From a virus, in the UHGV virus genome UHGV-1430452: DNA of 64,000 nt; one strand, given 5' to 3'. The position numbers were made by a program, and so were the translations under genes. The number at the start of each line of letters is the position of its first letter. Positions within the stretch are counted from its first letter, which is position 1. Below, in pieces: positions 4,656 through 25,657 of the stretch. The notes below the pieces were generated by a model that saw only the letters and a list, made by a program, of their open reading frames with translations, did not search any database and had not been told where the DNA came from.

Positions 4656-4946
4656 CTATCGTAAAGATTTTGGGACAAGGCTTTTGATAATCTTTTTCTG
4701 ATGCTCGTCCAGATCGTGATATAGAGTGAAACCCGTTGCCCCATTATACTCATCGCCAAACTGTTTGTAGTACATAGATTGTTTCCATAACTCCGGATAC
4801 TCTTTTTTGTACTTTGCGAGTTCTTTTGCTTTCTTGTCATACTGTTTATCCGAAATTATATTATTATCTAACTCGTAATAAATATATGAATGAAGTATGA
4901 TATATCTTTGCAAGTAATCTATGTATTCGAGGGTTGTTAGTTCCAT
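4656..4946 (-). CDS. Stand-alone NAD-dependent DNA ligase domain-Ia-like protein (96 aa)
   Basis: LHSYIYYELDNNIISDKQYDKKAKELAKYKKEYPEL...FG follows the LigA N-terminal pattern H-x-Y-x-Y..D.P.IsD.eYD.L..EL..LE..yPEL....G. It overlaps the replicase stop by 10 nt. Confidence 0.5.
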   Translation of the reverse strand: MELTTLEYIDYLQRYIILHSYIYYELDNNIISDKQYDKKAKELAKYKKEYPELWKQSMYYKQFGDEYNGATGFTLYHDLDEHQKKIIKSLVPKSLR

Positions 4947-7900
4947 GGCAGCTCTACATCTTCATCATCGAATGGAATTTCCTCAGGAGATCCTTCCGGT
5001 ATGTTCATGAAGTCTGGTAAATGAGAATCTCTAAAAGGAGGTTCATGCCGATCTGAAGCATCCCAAGGCGGAGTACCAACATATGGATCGTCTGATATGA
5101 ACCACTCAGCGTCTCCGTATTGACCAATAGTTTCAAGAGCATCATCCACAAGCTTTCGATAATATGAACGATCAATATTTTCTTCATTTCCCGGAGACAT
5201 CATTAACTCGGATTCAAGCCAACGGAAACCAGTTGTTCCTGTAGCTGCATAATATTTACCGTTCTGTTCTCGCATCAATAGTCCTCCACCCTTTCCAGGC
5301 TTAACCGGACAAAATTGCCCAACTTTACCTACGAAATGATAGTCATGACCTTCAGCTATTAAATCGTTTAATCTTCGACACTCACTTTCGAAAGTTGTGT
5401 CCGATAACTTACCTTTCCTGTACTTATCTTCAAGTTTGGATAGTTCTTTTTCATACTCGGATACATCTGGAAGTTTTTCGTTCATATCCAAATATAAAGC
5501 AGATTTTACTGAGAATGCTTCGCACATATCTTTCAACTCAATTGGTTCTTTACTGAACAGTGTTTTAAATACATACGGAACTGCAAACTGTTTTCCAGTA
5601 GCTGTCCATTCTCCGGCATTCTTTCCATCTTTAAACCTAGCCACGTACACAGCATCATTTACTAAACAGAATTTTTCAAAGTTAGCCTCTGTTTCAAATG
5701 TATATCCGTATTCTTTACCGAATTTGGTTACGAAATCAATAATATCAGGAGTAGCATCGGGTATCTTTATGGAATCTGTCTTGATATGACAAACAGTAAA
5801 TCCTCGTTTCTGAACTTCTCTTTTCAATAATGTCATGAAGAGAGCTCCTCTTTTGGCAACAATGTTATCCTTATTTCTAGGATCTCTAAATTCATTTACG
5901 AAGCCAGCTGATGTCAAACCATAAATGGAATTGATAACAATCTTAAGTGCCTGCGCTAAATCAGCAGCCTGTTCTTCATTTAAGTATGGTTTCAACGCTC
6001 CACCTAATAATTGTCCAGCTGTTTCAAAGTCTTTATGCTTAATTGCAACACGAGCTTTTACAATATCCTCAAACCGTTTTGTATATTCTGGTCCAAATAG
6101 ACATTCGAATATAATACTGTGAGGATGCTGAGAAGCAATGTCTCCATCCCATACATTACCGTAATGCCCAGGTTCAGAGTAAACCCGACCGCCTTCTCCA
6201 ATGGCTTCGCCTAAATATGTTGATTTACCAAACTCAAAAGTATAGCCTTTAAAGAATGGAAGAATGCTATAACCTTCTGGAAGCTTTTCGCCAGGAACGT
6301 AAGATCGATATAATGGAAGACCCTCAGAATCAAATACTCTGAAATCATAATCATCTCCGAATTTAATTCTATATTCATCATAACGATCTGAGCTAACCGG
6401 TTCCGCCAAGTATCTATAGTTGAATACATTCTGCGGTTTTTTATTATTTCCAAATATAATTCTTTTAGAAAGAGTATTTGTCGTATCATTAACTGTAACG
6501 TTTGTAATATCATGTAAGAGTTTTACAAGATCAACCTGAATCTGTCTAGCAACAAAGTCTGCTTTTCTTGCATTGAATACAGCTTCCGTCGCAATGACAT
6601 CATTATCGCAATACTCAGCAACCTTTGCCCATAATTCTTCTGGAACTGGTTGATCCCAAGGAAGACCAAGCTCTTGATGATGAATACCCAGTTCAATCTC
6701 CCATTTCTTTAAACTCTGTTTCACAGTTGACATATCATATACATCAATGTAACCAAGATTATATGCCTCACCAAACATGCCATTATCACGGCTTCCCTTT
6801 GGAGCATTAATAATTCTTTGAGATAACTTATATATTTCCTCATTTGTGTATCCCATAAGTCTAGCATAAATGATATGTCTGTCGTATTTACGTCCATTAA
6901 AATCAACAAGTTTAAACTTTAGAAGATTTTCTATTTCTGCTGGTGTAGGATTAATTAATCTAACTACTGTTTTTCCTTCTCCAGCAAACTTATAGTTTAC
7001 CAAAAATAAATTTGGGAATACCTCACAATCATAGAATACAAGATCGTCAGTATCACCCTCATTACTTGTCTCTGAAGCCTCTTCACTCTTAAACGCCATC
7101 TGATTAACTAACTTCAAACACTCATCAGCCTGGTTACTACTACTCGCCGCCAAAGCAAATACAGCATTTTTCATATCAGACACATCATATCCAATACCAC
7201 TCTCATAAGCCTCATCCAAAAGTTTCTTAATCATTTGAATACTTGGAGCTGTGTTACCCATAATTTCTTTATTCAGATGTTTCTTAAGAACGGATCTCAA
7301 ATATTTCTCATTCTTAATACCATCAAAGTTAATCACATTTTTCACCTCTTTCAACGGAAGACCTGAGCTAATTGTACGAATAACAAGATTGACACACTTA
7401 GTAAGTTTTCTTCTAAGAGATGTTTTACCGGTAAATACCTTAATCTCGATATCCTCATCAAATATACGACTTAATTCACTCACATCACCGTTATAAATAT
7501 AATGAAGATGAATACCTCCACCACTTTTGCTTAACTCAGCATATGTTGGAGGCCATTTACTAGCTGCTTCAAGATTCTTCTCGAAACATTTATTACCATT
7601 CTCGTCCTTAATATCAAAGTCAATAACTACATGATTTTCAGGGACCTTGACGTAATGAAGTTTTGATGTGTCAAGTTCTGATAGGGTAGTTGAAACTTCA
7701 TCCCATGGCTTCGTCGGAGTTTCTTTTGAAGTAGCATATTGAGCTGGACAATCAGAACATTCTTTATCAAAAATAGACTCCTGTTCTTCAAATATAAGCC
7801 AGCTCTCAGTTTTCTCATCTCCAATAGGTTTCTCTGCTTTAACCTTTTTCTTCCCACCAATAGAGTCTTCGAAAATATCAGTCTTAAAACCGTCGTAATA

Positions 7901-9163
7901 ACTCAGCAGCTTACTTCCATCTTCTTTCTCCACCTTCTCATCAAATTCCAAAAAATAGTTTCTCAACTCGTCTTTGAATTTTGTCTTAGAAAATGGATAC
8001 GGCACTTTTGCTTCCTCACAGTAGTTTTTATACATCTCCCATGCTGCTTTTAGCGTAGTACCATCTTCTTTCTTGAAGACACTGAATGAATCACATACGA
8101 AGTTATAAAAGTCATTAGAAGCCATAAGCATGTCCTTCGGAGCGTAAGTATCGTAATACTCTGGATCTTCTTTAAAGACTTGTAAACAATGATATGCGAT
8201 TGCTCCCAACTCAAAATCAACCTGTTTGGTCAATCTACGATATTCTCGAATCGGTATCTTGTTTCCAGTAGGACGAACGTCAATCAAACGCCTTAGTAAA
8301 CCAGACTTAGCATCAGTGATCTTAACAGGTGTGTTTGTACCCATAAATAAAAAACATTTGAATCTTGTTTCATATTGTCCTTTAAATTTTTCATTCATGG
8401 TCATTATCTCGTGTGAAATCACCGAGTTTAAGCGCGTATTATCTTCGATTTTTGATAAATCACCATCATGTTGTATCGCTACAAGAGGGTTATTCTTAAA
8501 CGGTTCCAGAGCGAAAACATTATTCGGATTACCCAAAGCTTTTGCGTCAAAAGAACAACAATATCCTTCAAATAATTTCTCGATAATATTTATGATAGTT
8601 GATTTACCAGTACCACCAGCTCCGTAAAGCACCAGGAACTTTTGAAGTATTTTTGATTCCCCAGATACAACGGAGCCGATAGCCCATTCTATTTTACGTC
8701 GTTCTTCTTCGGAATATAGAGTACCGATGAGTTTATCCCATGCAGAAATATCGCCAGGTTCGAGAGGATACGGGAGTCTCTTGCTTGCGAAATTCTCTCT
8801 GCTTAATTCTGTGTTTGAAAATATAAGTTCATCATCGAGTACAGCAAAGTTATCACGCATCTGTTTCTGACAATATTTATGGAACTTATCGATTGAGCCA
8901 CTGTCAGCATCCCACATATACTTAATTACAGGAGTACCTTCAAGACGTCCTTCATTTTCAGCGACATATCTATCAAGTTCTCTATCTACAAGACGGGTTA
9001 CATCGTCTTCATCTGTACTCCACATCTTTCGATCTTCATCCCAGATAGCGTAAAAGTCCCTACCTCGAATCATGAGATCTTTAGATTTCAACATTTTGAA
9101 CTTAGGAGAAACATCAACACTGCTTTTATTCGTCTTCGTTGATACTGTCATGAAGTCCAACAT
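4937..9163 (-). CDS. Replicase polyprotein: SF3 (D5/P4-type) helicase + prim-pol primase + 3'-5' exonuclease/family-B DNA polymerase (1408 aa)
   Basis: Walker A GAGGTGKS (nt 8600..8623). Prim-pol motifs VVIDFD (7613..7630) and GGGIHLHY (7499..7522). Exo motifs FYDCEVF, FNGRKYD, YCDNDV. PolB motifs DIASQHPHS, KIVINSIYG (5918..5944) and IKTDS (5771..5782). Confidence 0.85.
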   Translation of the reverse strand: MLDFMTVSTKTNKSSVDVSPKFKMLKSKDLMIRGRDFYAIWDEDRKMWSTDEDDVTRLVDRELDRYVAENEGRLEGTPVIKYMWDADSGSIDKFHKYCQKQMRDNFAVLDDELIFSNTELSRENFASKRLPYPLEPGDISAWDKLIGTLYSEEERRKIEWAIGSVVSGESKILQKFLVLYGAGGTGKSTIINIIEKLFEGYCCSFDAKALGNPNNVFALEPFKNNPLVAIQHDGDLSKIEDNTRLNSVISHEIMTMNEKFKGQYETRFKCFLFMGTNTPVKITDAKSGLLRRLIDVRPTGNKIPIREYRRLTKQVDFELGAIAYHCLQVFKEDPEYYDTYAPKDMLMASNDFYNFVCDSFSVFKKEDGTTLKAAWEMYKNYCEEAKVPYPFSKTKFKDELRNYFLEFDEKVEKEDGSKLLSYYDGFKTDIFEDSIGGKKKVKAEKPIGDEKTESWLIFEEQESIFDKECSDCPAQYATSKETPTKPWDEVSTTLSELDTSKLHYVKVPENHVVIDFDIKDENGNKCFEKNLEAASKWPPTYAELSKSGGGIHLHYIYNGDVSELSRIFDEDIEIKVFTGKTSLRRKLTKCVNLVIRTISSGLPLKEVKNVINFDGIKNEKYLRSVLKKHLNKEIMGNTAPSIQMIKKLLDEAYESGIGYDVSDMKNAVFALAASSSNQADECLKLVNQMAFKSEEASETSNEGDTDDLVFYDCEVFPNLFLVNYKFAGEGKTVVRLINPTPAEIENLLKFKLVDFNGRKYDRHIIYARLMGYTNEEIYKLSQRIINAPKGSRDNGMFGEAYNLGYIDVYDMSTVKQSLKKWEIELGIHHQELGLPWDQPVPEELWAKVAEYCDNDVIATEAVFNARKADFVARQIQVDLVKLLHDITNVTVNDTTNTLSKRIIFGNNKKPQNVFNYRYLAEPVSSDRYDEYRIKFGDDYDFRVFDSEGLPLYRSYVPGEKLPEGYSILPFFKGYTFEFGKSTYLGEAIGEGGRVYSEPGHYGNVWDGDIASQHPHSIIFECLFGPEYTKRFEDIVKARVAIKHKDFETAGQLLGGALKPYLNEEQAADLAQALKIVINSIYGLTSAGFVNEFRDPRNKDNIVAKRGALFMTLLKREVQKRGFTVCHIKTDSIKIPDATPDIIDFVTKFGKEYGYTFETEANFEKFCLVNDAVYVARFKDGKNAGEWTATGKQFAVPYVFKTLFSKEPIELKDMCEAFSVKSALYLDMNEKLPDVSEYEKELSKLEDKYRKGKLSDTTFESECRRLNDLIAEGHDYHFVGKVGQFCPVKPGKGGGLLMREQNGKYYAATGTTGFRWLESELMMSPGNEENIDRSYYRKLVDDALETIGQYGDAEWFISDDPYVGTPPWDASDRHEPPFRDSHLPDFMNIPEGSPEEIPFDDEDVELPWN

Positions 9164-15303: not shown

Positions 15304-15375
15304 GAAACAGTGTAGGACTCGAACCCACAACCTACAGATATAAGTCTGTTGCTCTACCAATTGAGCTAACTGTTT
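15304..15375 (-). tRNA. tRNA, probably Ile(UAU), with a 6-nt anticodon loop (72 nt)
   Basis: Hand fold: acceptor AAACAGT/ACTGTTT, D arm GCTC-AATTGGTA-GAGC, anticodon stem ACAGA/TCTGT with loop CTTATA, variable loop AGGTT, T arm GTGGG-TTCGAGT-CCTAC, discriminator C. Confidence 0.7.
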
Positions 15376-16674: not shown

Positions 16675-17442
16675 TCAATACTCTTCGTAATCAATGAACG
16701 GCTCTGTGAAATCTACAATATAACATTCAATACCGTCGTCCATTTCTACTTTTGTATGGTGGAAATATAGCCAACCATCCCAGTACATTTCATACATCTG
16801 AGCTGCGGACCAACCCATAAATTCACCGTAATCCTGTCGATCAATCTCTAGTAAATCGTAATAATCGTTTAAAGATGCACCACCGGATTGAGATAGCATT
16901 TTATTAATCTCATACTCTGCTCTCAATTGAGTTTCTTTCGTCACACGGTAATAACGTTTGGAATATTCATCGTAGAATAGTGTTTTGCCATCCTCGTATT
17001 CGTCGTCATATTCTTCTTTGTCTTCTTCCTCGTAATGGTCTTTTGCTACAGCAGCACGAATGAGTTTGTCTCCGTCTTCACCATATAACTTTTTAACTTT
17101 GTTTTTGTACTCTTTGTGAGTTTGGTCTAGTAAGGCATAAGCAGATGCGATGGCTGCTTGGGAATGTTTGTTTAATAGATTCGCGCCAAATATGCAAGCT
17201 AGGGTTCCTGTTCCAATCAATAAGGAAGGAATATATGTTGGTCCTGCTACTCGAATAGTCTCCCATTTTGTTAATTCATCTCCTTTCTCTTCTTCAGCTA
17301 GTTCAATAAGTTCCATTGCTTTCGGAGTAGCTTTAACCGCCATTACAGCTGTACCTACCACTCCGGCAGCTCCTAATACTGTTAATATAGTAGAGCTGTT
17401 TTTCTTTACGAATCTTTTCGAAACTGTTAGTAAGTCATTCAT
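16675..17442 (-). CDS. Two-TM membrane protein, paralogue 3 of 3 (DUF6353-like)
   Basis: ORF track 16675..17451; ATG at 17442 preferred over the GTG. It shares VKATPKAMELIE with paralogue 2. Confidence 0.6.
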   Translation of the reverse strand: MNDLLTVSKRFVKKNSSTILTVLGAAGVVGTAVMAVKATPKAMELIELAEEEKGDELTKWETIRVAGPTYIPSLLIGTGTLACIFGANLLNKHSQAAIASAYALLDQTHKEYKNKVKKLYGEDGDKLIRAAVAKDHYEEEDKEEYDDEYEDGKTLFYDEYSKRYYRVTKETQLRAEYEINKMLSQSGGASLNDYYDLLEIDRQDYGEFMGWSAAQMYEMYWDGWLYFHHTKVEMDDGIECYIVDFTEPFIDYEEY

Positions 17443-17472
17443 TTCCAGCACGCTCCTTGGCGATAAATTTGG

Positions 17473-17528
17473 TAAAAATAAAAAGAGAAAGAAAAGAGTC
17501 AGCTTGTTGTGTAAACCAAGTCTAACTC
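17473..17528 (-). terminator. Terminator-like hairpin + long U-rich run located downstream of box copy 8, in the leader of paralogue 3
   Basis: Minus strand GAGTTAGACTTG-gtttacacaa-CAAGCTGACTC then TTTTCTTTCTCTTTTTATTTTT. Confidence 0.45.
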
Positions 17529-17563
17529 AATTCTTTTTGTCATTATCCGAAATAACAATATCC

Positions 17564-17590
17564 CATAACAGGTGATGTAATTTTCGCGAA
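17564..17590 (-). promoter_or_regulatory. Early-box copy 8 (followed by a terminator-like hairpin)
   Basis: Plus strand CATAACAGGTGATGTAATTTTCGCGAA. Confidence 0.55.
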
Positions 17591-17593
17591 TCC

Positions 17594-17815
17594 CTACTGC
17601 TCAAAAAATAAAACTACATCTACCGGATCTTTGAAGTGCTGCTCCTCCACTACTTCTTTAAATTCTTCAAATGATTCCGGTTCGTATTCTTGTAAATATA
17701 AAATCTGTTCAAGCAATCTTCCGTAAAATCCTTGAGAATTAGATAGCATTTTTACCACACCAATGACTTGTTCAACATCATAACCGTCTGCTTTCTTTTC
17801 CATAGCGTTTGCCAT
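17594..17815 (-). CDS. Hypothetical acidic protein (73 aa from the SD-supported start)
   Basis: ORF track 17594..17824. The ATG at 17815 sits in the recurrent GGAG..TTCAAAATG context. It is preceded by a ~170-nt GC-rich leader. Confidence 0.6.
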   Translation of the reverse strand: MANAMEKKADGYDVEQVIGVVKMLSNSQGFYGRLLEQILYLQEYEPESFEEFKEVVEEQHFKDPVDVVLFFEQ

Positions 17816-17993
17816 TTTGAACACTCCTTTAATTGGTTTTTGATAAAAATAAAAAGAGAATACAATGACTTCAGGGTCGGCCCAACGAAAACCGTTGCCC
17901 GGTGGGTAGCATGTTTTATTACGTTATTACGTGCCGCTACGCCTTCGTGTCTCACCACTGGATTTCCACCAGTATCTATCCATTGCTTTCTCT
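17816..17993 (-). ncRNA. Candidate structured 5' leader / cis-regulatory RNA (class unknown)
   Basis: This ~170-nt gap between box copy 9 and the start at 17815 is visibly GC-richer than its surroundings. Several helices can be drawn: CUGG/CCAG, GUAGC/GCUAC with GUGG/CCAC, ACGU/ACGU and CAACG/CGUUG. Confidence 0.35.
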
Positions 17994-18020
17994 CATAATA
18001 GGTGATGTAATTTTCGCGAA
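17994..18020 (-). promoter_or_regulatory. Early-box copy 9 (consensus copy; followed by the GC-rich leader)
   Basis: Plus strand CATAATAGGTGATGTAATTTTCGCGAA. Confidence 0.6.
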
Positions 18021-18047
18021 TAGAAAAAGAAAATGCCTAGTTTTTAA

Positions 18048-18311
18048 CTAGACAAATTCTTTAATAATTATTGTTCCACCAACTACATCGATTTTTATTT
18101 TATTCATCGCTTTCAACATACTAGCCACTTTTTGCACTGGTAACTTACTTGTGAAACCATAGAACACCAAGTCGCCCATGGTATATACATGCCCTACTGA
18201 ATACTTAACTTCAATATCGGCTGTATATTTGCCAAGGCAATCCATTGCTCCTAAATTTTTCACAACTTCGTTTTTATTCGCGCATAAAGTAATTTCATAT
18301 TTAGTAAACAT
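18048..18311 (-). CDS. Hypothetical protein (87 aa)
   Basis: ORF track; TAAGGAGGAAT SD; box copy 10 upstream. Confidence 0.6.
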   Translation of the reverse strand: MFTKYEITLCANKNEVVKNLGAMDCLGKYTADIEVKYSVGHVYTMGDLVFYGFTSKLPVQKVASMLKAMNKIKIDVVGGTIIIKEFV

Positions 18312-18346: not shown

Positions 18347-18373
18347 CATAATAGGTGATGTAATTTTCGCGAA
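18347..18373 (-). promoter_or_regulatory. Early-box copy 10 (identical to copy 9)
   Basis: Plus strand CATAATAGGTGATGTAATTTTCGCGAA. Confidence 0.6.
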
Positions 18374-18572: not shown

Positions 18573-18599
18573 CATAATAGGACTTGTAATTTTCGCGAA
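18573..18599 (-). promoter_or_regulatory. Early-box copy 11
   Basis: Plus strand CATAATAGGACTTGTAATTTTCGCGAA. Confidence 0.6.
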
Positions 18600-19791: not shown

Positions 19792-19868
19792 GGAATAGCG
19801 CGGGATTCGAACCCACGACGTTGAGTTTCCTCTTATTCTTCCATTAGAACTAACCGTCTTAACTATTC
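19792..19868 (-). tRNA. tRNA-like element with canonical acceptor + T arm but a non-canonical body (77 nt; isotype undetermined, possibly a pseudo-tRNA)
   Basis: Acceptor GAATAGT/GCTATTC; T arm GTGGG-TTCGAAT-CCCGC. The 45-nt interior cannot be folded into D + anticodon arms. It pairs instead as GACGGTTAGTT/AACTCAACGTC around a purine-rich 20-nt loop. Confidence 0.5.
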
Positions 19869-19917
19869 CAGAGACTTCTTCCGATATATTGCTATACGGG
19901 AATTGTTCTCTTCTTTT

Positions 19918-23397: not shown

Positions 23398-23994
23398 ATG
23401 ACAATAGGACAAAAAATAAAAGAATTACGCAATCAACTTAATATGTCGGTGGATGATCTTGCTGTGAAACTGGGTAAGAACCGTGCGACTATCTACCGCT
23501 ATGAACGAGGAGATATCGAGAACCTCCCTCTCGATGTACTAGAACCATTAGCAAATGCTCTTGAGACCACACCTGGTTATTTAATGGGATGGGAAGAAAC
23601 TACGAAAAAGAAAGAGCCTTCAATTATCGATGAAGTTACCATGGGTGACGTTTTTAAAGCGTTACGTCTAGGAAGTAATTTATCGATAGAGGAATTTTCG
23701 CATGAGATTGGATTATCTGCCCAAGACATAAGCAATTATGAAGCAGGAAAGACTCCTATACCTGTAAATATAATTAATCTTGTTGCTGATTTCTTTGGCA
23801 TATCAATAGCGGAAATAGTTAAGGCACACAAAAACAGCGAAAATAGAACGCCTTCTGGTTTCGAAATGAAAAAGGAACGATTTGAACGTTTTAAAGTTTG
23901 GAATAAAGAGTTTGGACGAATACATTTTACTGATGAAGAAATCAATAAAATAATGGAATATACAAGGTTCTTACTTAGCCAAAGAAGACAGTAA
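23398..23994 (+). CDS. CI-like repressor with two XRE-type HTH domains and no S24 peptidase domain
   Basis: IGQKIKELRNQLNMSVDDLAVKLGKNRATIYRYERG and FKALRLGSNLSIEEFSHEIGLSAQDISNYEAG are both HTH_XRE-like. The C-terminus is short and lacks Ser/Lys protease motifs. Confidence 0.75.
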   Translation: MTIGQKIKELRNQLNMSVDDLAVKLGKNRATIYRYERGDIENLPLDVLEPLANALETTPGYLMGWEETTKKKEPSIIDEVTMGDVFKALRLGSNLSIEEFSHEIGLSAQDISNYEAGKTPIPVNIINLVADFFGISIAEIVKAHKNSENRTPSGFEMKKERFERFKVWNKEFGRIHFTDEEINKIMEYTRFLLSQRRQ

Positions 23995-24079
23995 GTCTAC
24001 ATAGGTTTACTCTATTTAAAGGAGGTGATGCCTGAATTCAGTTCATCGTAGAATTTACATCAAAGGAAAGGTGGAACCA

Positions 24080-25657
24080 ATGACAACGTTTGATATGAAC
24101 AACGCTGTAGACAATGCGTTCGGTATGGACGTATATGCTATCTATCTTCGGAAAAGTCGAGCCGATGTAGAAGCAGAAAAACTTGGAGAAGGAGAAACAC
24201 TAGCAAGGCATAGAAAGATACTAACAGAACTTGCTGCTAGAAAAGGATTGTATATCGGTAAGATTTACGAGGAAATTGTATCTGGTGAAACAATCGAAGC
24301 TAGACCTGAAATACAAAAACTGATAGAAGATTGTTATAAAGGGAAATATAGAGGAATCCTAATAGTAGAAGTTACTCGTCTATCTCGTGGTAATCAAGGA
24401 GACGCTCAAAAAATACTCGACTGTCTCAAATATTCGAATAGAAACAATGGTGTATTAGTTATCACTCCTACTAAGACTTATGACGTTGCACACAGCCAAG
24501 AAGACGAAGAATATATGGAGTTTGAATTGTTTATGTCTCGTCGAGAATATAAGATGATTCAAAAGCGTATGGATCGTGGCCGTAAACAAGCAGTCGTAGA
24601 AGGAAACTTCATGGGTAGTTACCGTCCCTATGGATATGACATCTTAAAAACCAAGACCGGACGAACACTTATACCGAATGAAGATGAAGCTCCTATCGTG
24701 AAAATGATTTACGAATGGACAGTTAACGATAATTTATCTCCTTTCAAGATAGCTGAGCGTTTAACTAATATGGGTGTTCCTACTTATTATGGTGAGAAGG
24801 ATTGGTCTAAAGAAACAGTTAAAACCATTTTGACGAATCAGACATACATGGGTAAAGTTCGTTGGAATGATCGAATGACTGTTAAGACTATGGTCGACGG
24901 AGAACTTAAAGCTACACGACCTCGTTCAAATCATTCCGATCACTTCATGCTATATGATGGAAAACATATGAAACACGCACTCGTCGACGAAGAAACATTC
25001 AAAGCAGCCTCCTCTCGCTTTCATAACGATAGGACAAGATCAAATCTAAAACTTGTTAATCCTCTTGCAGGACTTCTATTTTGTAAGAAATGTGGTAAAT
25101 CTATGGGTTATCAATCATATAGACATAAGAAAAACGGACCAATGGATCGATACAATCATAGACAGTCTGCTAATGGATGCAAGGTTAAGTCAGCAGTTGC
25201 TGAGGATGTTATAAAAGCTGTTATACATGCTTTGAAACTTTATATAGAAGATTTCGAATTTAAGTTAGACAACACTCCAGATGTTGACGAAAATTCAATC
25301 AATACGCAGCTCGAAGCTTTACAAAAAGAAATACGAAAATCCGAACGAAAACTTGCTAAGCTATTCGATTCTTGGGAAGATGAGAAGATAACAGATAATG
25401 AATTTGTTCAAAGGAAAGCCGTCCATAATCAGAAGATAGAAAATATAAAGAGGCAAATGGAAGAACTCGAATATTCGATACCAGAAAGAGAAGAATATGA
25501 GGATAAAATAATATTGCTGTCTGAAGCACTTGTCGCTATCACAGACGAATCGCTTGACGCAGATATTAAGAACGAGTATCTTAAAAGAATCATTGATAGA
25601 ATAGAGTTTAGTAGAGAGAATAACTCAGAGTTTATACTAGATATAGACTTATGCTAA
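24080..25657 (+). CDS. int: Large serine recombinase (integrase)
   Basis: YAIYLRKSRAD (catalytic Ser), VTRLSRG, a recombinase domain, the zinc ribbon CKKCGK...C and a C-terminal coiled coil. ATG at 24080 after AAAGGAAAGGTGG (the ORF-track GTG is at 24071). Confidence 0.85.
   Translation: MTTFDMNNAVDNAFGMDVYAIYLRKSRADVEAEKLGEGETLARHRKILTELAARKGLYIGKIYEEIVSGETIEARPEIQKLIEDCYKGKYRGILIVEVTRLSRGNQGDAQKILDCLKYSNRNNGVLVITPTKTYDVAHSQEDEEYMEFELFMSRREYKMIQKRMDRGRKQAVVEGNFMGSYRPYGYDILKTKTGRTLIPNEDEAPIVKMIYEWTVNDNLSPFKIAERLTNMGVPTYYGEKDWSKETVKTILTNQTYMGKVRWNDRMTVKTMVDGELKATRPRSNHSDHFMLYDGKHMKHALVDEETFKAASSRFHNDRTRSNLKLVNPLAGLLFCKKCGKSMGYQSYRHKKNGPMDRYNHRQSANGCKVKSAVAEDVIKAVIHALKLYIEDFEFKLDNTPDVDENSINTQLEALQKEIRKSERKLAKLFDSWEDEKITDNEFVQRKAVHNQKIENIKRQMEELEYSIPEREEYEDKIILLSEALVAITDESLDADIKNEYLKRIIDRIEFSRENNSEFILDIDLC

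Follow-up and report, generated by a model that had tools for sequence, protein, structure and literature searches.

A 132-nt structured RNA lies on the minus strand at positions 17858–17989 of a 64,000-nt stretch of the virus genome UHGV-1430452 (hereafter the window), and belongs to a family that is found widely in temperate phages whose hosts are Oscillospiraceae and other Clostridia of the gut, and that is absent from Rfam. We recovered 120 copies, representing 44 distinct sequences, from IMG/VR phage contigs, gut metagenomes and genomes assigned to Oscillospiraceae, Eubacteriales or "Clostridiales", and the window's own copy is the single match to the family covariance model in 64 kb (155.4 bits, E 1.5e-45). 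A preliminary description, made by reading the letters of the window, had proposed a structured element of riboswitch or small RNA size in the leader of a gene for a 73-amino-acid (aa) protein; the covariance-model match and the covariation among homologues both uphold this. We hypothesize, with evenly divided confidence, that the element is a stand-alone, early-transcribed and stable small RNA that would act in trans, through a surface formed by an invariant bulge and loop, on a partner conserved across Clostridia hosts, and that in the window its terminal helix (P1) and the U-run behind it would also attenuate the 73-aa gene. Coordinates are those of the window throughout, and all genes and RNA features in this part of it are on the minus strand.

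The proof of structure is comparative. In a covariance-model alignment of the 44 distinct sequences, 97.4% of the cells hold standard pairs and 21 of the 42 pairs are changed on both sides, as against 5–9 doubly changed pairs and 38–51% pairing in six slid controls; the observed values were not attained in any of 500 column shuffles, and an independent MAFFT alignment gives 18 doubly changed pairs versus 3–6 in its controls. The nested helices of the preliminary description, which had named missing covariation as a ground for discarding them, are hence decisively supported. That description had also counted against the structure a folding energy no better than that of dinucleotide-shuffled sequences, and this is indeed what we find (z = -0.55 for the 178-nt leader and -0.29 for the 132-nt core); because the energy is not significant, it is unusable as evidence either way, and the helices are established by covariation, not by thermodynamics. 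The transcribed strand is fixed by G-U pairs that occur at three positions in 40–43 of the 44 sequences and would become C-A on the opposite strand.

The predicted fold, on which RNAalifold and manual reading agree, is a four-way junction of P1, a hairpin (P2), a long P3–P4 arm with a 10-nt bulge and a second hairpin (P5). P1 is formed by the 5′ strand AAAGCAAUGG (17980–17989) and the 3′ strand UCAUUGUAUU (17859–17868), with nine of its ten pairs doubly changed, and is flanked inside the junction by the segments J1/2 (AUAGAU) and J5/1 (UGAAG). P2 (17957–17973; ACUGG-UGGAAAU-CCAGU) consists of a 5-bp stem, in which three pairs are doubly changed, and a 7-nt loop with invariant U1 and A5; in the relative L001, which carries the same leader with four substitutions, two of these turn an A-U pair of the window's P2 into G-C. 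The 5′ strand of P3 (GGUG, within 17943–17956) pairs with CACC at 17901–17904, which lies within an invariant CCCACC; GGUG is accompanied by the 10-nt bulge AGACACGAAG, which is identical in all of the distinct sequences except L066 and L188. The P4 arm (17905–17942), comprising a G-C pair, a C bulge, the helix GUAGCG/UGCUAC and the inner hairpin ACGU-AAUA-ACGU, varies between phages in sequence and length, with six of the eight outer pairs doubly changed (e.g., UA/GC/CG and GC/AU/UA) and a C-G pair of the inner hairpin replaced by A-U. The helix of the P5 arm (17874–17900; GGG-CAA-CGG[UUUUCGUUGGG]CCG-A-CCC) covaries as well, with variants such as CAG/CUG in L036, GGU-A-CACAG/CUGUG-A-ACC in L023 and GGAA-CUCGG/CCGAG-U-UUCC in L188, and its 11-nt loop (17891–17881) is the same in all but three of the 44 distinct sequences (L023/L188, L001 and L046, one base off each). 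Three minimal variants (L023 and the identical L188 and L189) lack P2, have short hairpins in place of P4 and form a three-way junction, L188 measuring 97 nt; they retain GGUGAGACACGAA, CCCACC and the loop UUUUCGAUGGG, and their P1 and P5 sequences differ from those of the other copies yet still pair. CGAAG of the bulge could form a pseudoknot with UUUCG of the P5 loop, with two wobble-compatible changes set against two that would break it.

The element is also crossed by an open reading frame (ORF; 17752..17958, minus strand) which, as the preliminary description stated, overlaps the downstream gene out of frame. It begins with GTG, and in 59 of 63 distinct contexts an ATG within the promoter-like box upstream of the RNA is in frame with it; these are the observations that could be cited for a small coding gene, or more generally for a DNA-level site or a GC-rich remnant in place of a functional RNA. 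The window itself, however, has no in-frame ATG, the 17/10/12 distribution of variable columns over codon positions 1/2/3 shows no excess at the third, the stem substitutions would replace amino acids radically, and the frame is broken by a 1-nt insertion in L045 and shifted between two invariant blocks in L023. A protein-coding gene is rejected on these grounds, and the ORF spans the RNA in most phages because the sequence is conserved. Given in addition that changes within helices are compensatory and that G-U pairs are tolerated on one strand only, we assign next to no probability to any account that does without a functional RNA.

Homologues were recovered by way of the 73-aa protein, which led to three IMG/VR contigs, and then by scans with short invariant words. 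The RNA is present on 69 metagenome contigs, many of them labelled human gut, and in the cultured bacteria Muriventricola aceti H5_61 and Clostridiales bacterium CCNA10, with one copy per locus. No homologue was found among 50,697 GenBank phages (INPHARED) by megablast, by sensitive blastn of the region or by tblastn of the 73-aa protein, and in a comparison of TerL the closest GenBank records were uncultured human faecal phages. The core of the RNA is 86–98% identical between copies, although the G+C content of their contexts spans 34–53% and the neighboring proteins are 35–75% identical, falling to 35–45% or below detection; selection has thus acted on the RNA itself. Thousands of candidate phage RNAs exist, and a catalogue of 10,006 candidate structured RNAs from IMG/VR (PMC10690425) could list this one anonymously; neither its sequence nor DUF6353, a domain family encoded by some of its neighbors, appears in the papers searched. 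As far as these databases and this literature show, the family is undescribed, and its general kind, a structured small phage RNA among tRNA genes, is known.

In the window, the terminal helix of the RNA begins within a few nucleotides of the 3′ end of a promoter-like "early box" (UUCGCGAAAAUUACAUCACCUAUUAU, 17995–18020). This box consists of the repeated element TTCGCGAAAATTACATCACCT, found at 18020–18000, 17590–17570 and 18373–18353 and with three mismatches at 18599–18579 (four copies against a chance expectation of 0), followed by ATTAT with its last base at 17995, and a terminator-like hairpin and U-run stand ahead of each box in the window. Counted from the G that follows TATTAT (17994) up to the ATG (17815), the leader of the 73-aa gene measures 179 nt, which is exceptional because that of the neighboring cassette is only about 36 nt (box at 18373, ATG at 18311), in keeping with the unusual length first noted. 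The GC-rich core first noted is likewise present (G+C 0.48 over 17850–17949 versus 0.27–0.35 on the flanks), and is conspicuous only for non-coding DNA, since coding stretches elsewhere in the window are equally high. Directly 3′ of P1 follows the pyrimidine- and U-rich tail CUCUUUUUAUUUUU (17845–17858), so that P1 and the tail, a stem with a U-run immediately behind it, resemble an intrinsic terminator; simple scanners miss this putative terminator because its "loop" is 110 nt. The RNA presumably ends in this U-run, and the full transcript, with its outer pairs and U tail, probably spans ~17994 to ~17845. Behind it, with no intervening box, come the Shine–Dalgarno sequence (SD; AAAGGAG, 17830–17824) and the 73-aa gene (ATG at 17815, stop at 17596–17594; together 17594–17830).

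The position of the transcription start is constrained by relatives: P1 of the minimal variants is formed by the six nucleotides right after TATAAT (GAGAGA/UCUCUC in L023, GAGAGG/CCUCUU in L188), and in high-GC relatives the SD of the next gene (GGAGGUGA) begins at the same post-TATAAT G, so transcription must start at or before that G. Such a start is nearer to TAT(T/A)AT than a standard -10 element allows; transcription seems to begin directly past the TATAAT-like block, unlike at a standard sigma-70 promoter. The same box design recurs at 17995–18020, in the other boxes of the window and in L005, L113, L188 and others, as CGC(G/A), 14–17 variable nucleotides, CCT(A)TTAT or TATAAT, and then immediately G. 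Promoters of single-subunit RNA polymerases (...CACTATA-GGGAGA) bear a superficial resemblance to it.

The preliminary description took the RNA for a leader, which is correct by position in this phage; indeed, the RNA doubles as leader of the 73-aa gene in one lineage only (the window, L001, L133 and L176). In its relatives the RNA occurs in other contexts. Where the flanking sequence is long enough to tell, 86 of 115 copies have a box of this design immediately upstream, 16 have a tRNA or tRNA-like T arm or acceptor there, and 13 have other sequence, several of these showing further T-arm-like hairpins by eye. On the downstream side, 108 of 119 copies have a U-run (T4 or more, at most 45 nt past P1), followed by a new box in 90 and by a boxless gene or other sequence in 18 (the window's type), and the other 11 run straight into a tRNA-like gene that itself ends in a U-run. 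At least 27 copies are therefore fused to tRNA or tRNA-like genes, 16 directly upstream, as in L113, and 11 directly downstream, as in L002; the box that comes next drives a tRNA in L019, L020 and L035, and T-arm-like hairpins occur on the strand of the RNA in 36 of 118 loci versus 2 of 118 on the opposite strand. The genes that follow are heterogeneous (encoding the 73-aa protein, p75, p119, DUF6353 proteins, a small transmembrane protein and others). The 73-aa protein, for its part, has no match in Pfam, PHROG, NCBIfam or PADLOC, and its homologues are preceded by different small RNAs or just a box: those in L002 and L003 follow tRNA-like RNAs, the one in L002 having a 17-nt anticodon loop, and L002 carries the box and the RNA at a second site, where the RNA precedes a different gene and is joined to a miniature tRNA-like sequence. 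Taken together, its own box and U-run, the tRNA-like fusions, the varied downstream genes and the 73-aa homologues that lack the RNA identify it as a portable small-RNA cassette and not a mere leader.

Few RNAs combine a complex multi-helix fold with many invariant unpaired nucleotides, and those that were followed up have mostly turned out to be riboswitches, ribozymes or machines that bind proteins. In the mechanism we propose, the early promoter box of the phage would fire within a few nucleotides of the base of P1, the transcript would fold as a compact four-way junction (three-way in the minimal variants), and P1 with the U-run would terminate it, giving a product of about 125–135 nt with its two ends paired to each other, presumably stable and abundant. 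Its unvarying parts, namely the bulge AGACACGAAG, the strand CCCACC and the loop UUUUCG(U/A)UGGG, may constitute a binding surface or pocket, possibly with a bulge–loop pseudoknot, and could act in trans on a partner conserved across Clostridia hosts, either a protein of host or phage or else a small molecule, the RNA serving as a decoy, mimic or sponge in early infection or prophage induction. It shares its type of cassette with phage tRNA and tRNA-like genes and would often be co-transcribed with them. In the window, since the 73-aa gene behind the RNA has no box of its own, P1 and the U-run would additionally be a cis attenuator that limits read-through.

Several observations weigh against this proposal. 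The ends, abundance and stability of the RNA are inferred from sequence alone, and the high identity of its copies could partly stem from recent horizontal spread of a mobile cassette. The 18 copies, including that of the window, that precede a gene or other sequence without a recognizable box are as expected of a cis-regulator; clustering of neighboring ORFs yielded no universal neighbor family that would identify the partner, and the proposed pseudoknot is without compensatory support. A gene matching the DUF6353 profile lies within 1.4 kb downstream in just 22 of 79 loci, and its predicted structure is uninformative: neither the sequence nor the predicted fold ties DUF6353 to nucleases or defense proteins. 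A Pfam search of the common neighbors returned only DUF6431 and zinc ribbons.

Among other explanations, the main rival, which we judge unlikely and nevertheless take seriously, is a cis-acting attenuator of the riboswitch type, in which the junction would be the aptamer for a metabolite or signaling nucleotide and P1 the terminator stem, so that the stabilized fold stops transcription and the unfolded one lets it read through. The architecture is indeed typical of riboswitch aptamers that end in an intrinsic terminator: P1 closes a junction of several helices, the stems covary and unpaired nucleotides are invariant. A promoter is immediately upstream, the U-run follows P1 at once in 108 of 119 copies, and the boxless downstream contexts, the window's among them, have an SD-bearing gene next. 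Like such riboswitches and the small RNAs derived from them (SreA/SreB in Listeria, EutX/Rli55), it may also end as a short transcript that stands alone. The next gene, however, has its own box in 90 of 119 copies and is sometimes a tRNA, and 11 copies enter a tRNA-like gene and not a U-run; the RNA is not tied to one gene class, none of the heterogeneous downstream genes is a metabolic or transport gene that would hint at a ligand, and a constant position before genes of related function is not seen. Nor does any Rfam riboswitch class match, and no competing antiterminator helix was seen in the alignments, although this search was not exhaustive. It is less probable again, a long shot in our estimate, that the RNA is a counter-defense or take-over factor, made in bulk early as an aptamer or decoy that sequesters an immune signal of the host (a nucleotide messenger, cyclic or linear) or blocks a conserved host RNA-targeting enzyme, such as a tRNA-directed nuclease, with the neighboring "tRNAs" that have swapped or crippled anticodon arms belonging to the same decoy toolkit. 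If true, this would be a new class of anti-defense, the structured RNA sponge; to our knowledge, those known so far are sponges made of protein and ordinary replacement tRNAs.

An RNA-processing or self-cleaving element, which as a ribozyme or a substrate of the RNase P or RNase Z type would cut early polycistronic transcripts and set the ends of adjacent tRNA-like RNAs and mRNAs, agrees with the fusions to tRNA-like genes in at least 27 copies, with the cloverleaf order of the helices, with the T-loop-like hairpin loops (UGGAAAU, and UUCGAUG in L023) and with the very high conservation of unpaired nucleotides, which is typical of catalytic cores. Yet no self-cleaving class of Rfam, tRNA model or ARAGORN prediction matches it, and most copies are monocistronic, with a box and U-run of their own that leave processing unneeded; we consider this highly improbable. 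Slightly less credit still goes to an antisense regulator like C4 of phages P1 and P7, which RNase P releases from a precursor and which uses two loops to pair with its target; here the invariant bulge and loop would pair with a phage or host mRNA, for example over a ribosome-binding site within the early region or the immunity region. Like C4 (RF01695), the RNA is a small RNA of a temperate phage closed by a long terminal helix, it lies in the early operon, with the genes for the repressor and the recombinase a few kb away, its P5 loop in the window can by eye be paired with CCAAU-U-AAA just 5′ of the SD of the 73-aa gene, and the minimal variant L188 gives a weak match to the C4 model (20.3 bits, E 0.08). 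That score is less than half of the gathering score of 45, however, and the alignment pairs the U-run and not the supported helices; the junction and the conserved sequences are different, and the hosts are Firmicutes, not Proteobacteria. Across 58 distinct contexts of up to 6 kb (about 3 kb on either side of the RNA), Watson–Crick complements of at least 7 nt to the loop, bulge and junctions were no commoner than for shuffled queries, and a version of the search that allowed G-U was uninformative. Only one complement recurred, TTTCCACC, which could pair with the P2 loop; it shows no covariation with the P2-loop variants and is part of another promoter-like motif, and was rejected as an antisense target for these reasons. 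This motif (TTTCCACCGAGGTTGTTTTTAC-N17/18-TAGAAT, which includes TTTCCACC) is sigma-70-like and conserved in high-GC relatives before a gene for an 83-aa protein (MNEQEFHPGSVPVAVAARVYGKDASW...), at +656 from the RNA core in L005, +655 in L007, +1160 in L043 and in others. A type III toxin–antitoxin system (an arrangement of small RNA, terminator and protein gene that is seen three times in the window with DUF6353 genes) was considered and rejected, as the RNA is not tandemly repeated, DUF6353 genes lie within 1.4 kb in only the minority of loci given above, and DUF6353 shows no tie to nucleases or defense proteins. The remaining probability we leave to mechanisms not considered here.

Comparison with known RNA classes agrees with the preliminary description, which could place the element in none: nothing in Rfam 15 overlaps it at E <= 10 in a search of 17700–18100, and searches with the relatives and a minimal variant returned only the sub-threshold C4 match. 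The only match in the window at gathering level is a tRNA at 15304–15375, and neither tRNA models (RF00005) nor ARAGORN match the RNA itself. Its likeness to tRNAs and the tRNA-like RNAs of phages is nevertheless considerable. The cassettes are built alike, from a box, a terminal helix formed by the 5′ and 3′ ends and a U-run, and are often adjacent or co-transcribed; four helices follow one another in cloverleaf order (P1, P2, P3–P4, P5), all covarying (P2 being absent from the minimal variants); and the 7-nt hairpin loops, UGGAAAU and UUCG(U/A)UG, are of the T-loop type. The differences from tRNA lie in the junction lengths (6/0/0/5 nt versus 2/1/variable/0), in the place of the anticodon arm, which is taken by a 50-nt arm with an invariant bulge, and in the 3′ end, which has no CCA and is not acceptor-like. 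The closing pair of the G53-C61 type is also missing, the P5 loop being drawable as UUCGUUG (UUCGAUG in L023 and L188) closed by U-G pairs, and where the GG of the P2 loop gives way to GA or UA, P5 does not change with it, so that a canonical T arm and D loop are not present. This last difference also separates the RNA from YrlA, which has canonical D and T arms. YrlA is one of the bacterial Y RNAs, tRNA mimics bound by Ro/Rsr; like our RNA it occurs in phages and joins a tRNA-like module to a terminal helix built from its 5′ and 3′ ends, but the Y RNA model in Rfam does not match our RNA. No Ro/Rsr or RtcB gene was noticed near copies of the RNA, although no systematic search was made. The tRNA gene cluster of phage T4 encodes two stable RNAs of about 120–140 nt and of unknown function ("species 1 and 2", or RNA C and D), which lie among tRNA genes and are co-processed with them; they resemble our RNA, in a comparison by description only, in size and in the setting of tRNA genes, and come from an unrelated phage group and host.

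Should the RNA bind a host factor or signal, it would show gut phages manipulating their hosts by RNA and not by protein; should it bind a ligand, it would be a new class of aptamer. Because two cultured lysogens carry the RNA, these predictions are directly testable.

The window belongs to a temperate phage, siphovirus-like and about 90 kb in size (the contig of the relative L001 measures 89.5 kb), as judged from a lysogeny module at 23398–25657 (plus strand), with a CI-like repressor containing two helix-turn-helix domains and a large serine recombinase, and from a 1408-aa P4-type primase with DUF5906 at 4937–9163 (minus strand). The lysogeny module is divergent from the early leftward operon, in which the RNA sits among small genes of the take-over type. 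Among the high-GC relatives, 37 of 54 loci (L115, L009, L030, L126, L007 and L056 among them) encode a DUF6431 zinc-ribbon protein, about 108 aa long, some 1 kb upstream of the RNA, and a 140-aa protein (RPELSQKNPYWIGKHRYYELKHFC...) is likewise encoded in 37 of 54, mostly about 1 kb downstream.

The RNA is accompanied by unusual tRNA-like genes with replaced or shortened anticodon arms. Two tRNA or tRNA-like genes are in the window. The tRNA gene at 15304–15375 (minus strand; 62 bits in Rfam) lies about 6 nt past a promoter box, encodes no CCA and is followed by a DUF6353 gene; its anticodon loop has 6 nt (CUUAUA), for which ARAGORN gives the 2-base anticodon "ta". Its relatives keep the acceptor (GAAACAG/CUGUUUC), the D arm and the T arm, and the anticodon arm is swapped (CACC-AUUAAC-GGUG in L019, an insertion of about 30 nt in L020 and a 17-nt loop in L002 at 2839–2922), suggesting a tRNA scaffold whose anticodon arm is hypervariable. 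A tRNA-like RNA at 19792–19869 (minus strand), called in the window by neither ARAGORN nor Rfam, combines the acceptor GGAAUAG/CUAUUCC and the T arm GUGGGUUCGAAUCCCGC with two hairpins and a possible 3-bp D stem between them, and has a box-like promoter before it and a U-run after it; its relatives are at 928–1020 in L001 and at about 2830–2920 in L003 (77%), there upstream of the 73-aa homologue. Finally, the leader at 17455–17566 (minus strand), between the box at 17590–17570 and a DUF6353 gene (16675–17451), is predicted to be much more stable than its shuffles (z = -4.08) and contains two hairpins, the second followed by UCUCUUUUUAUUUUU, as another promoter-proximal terminator or attenuator before a DUF6353 gene.

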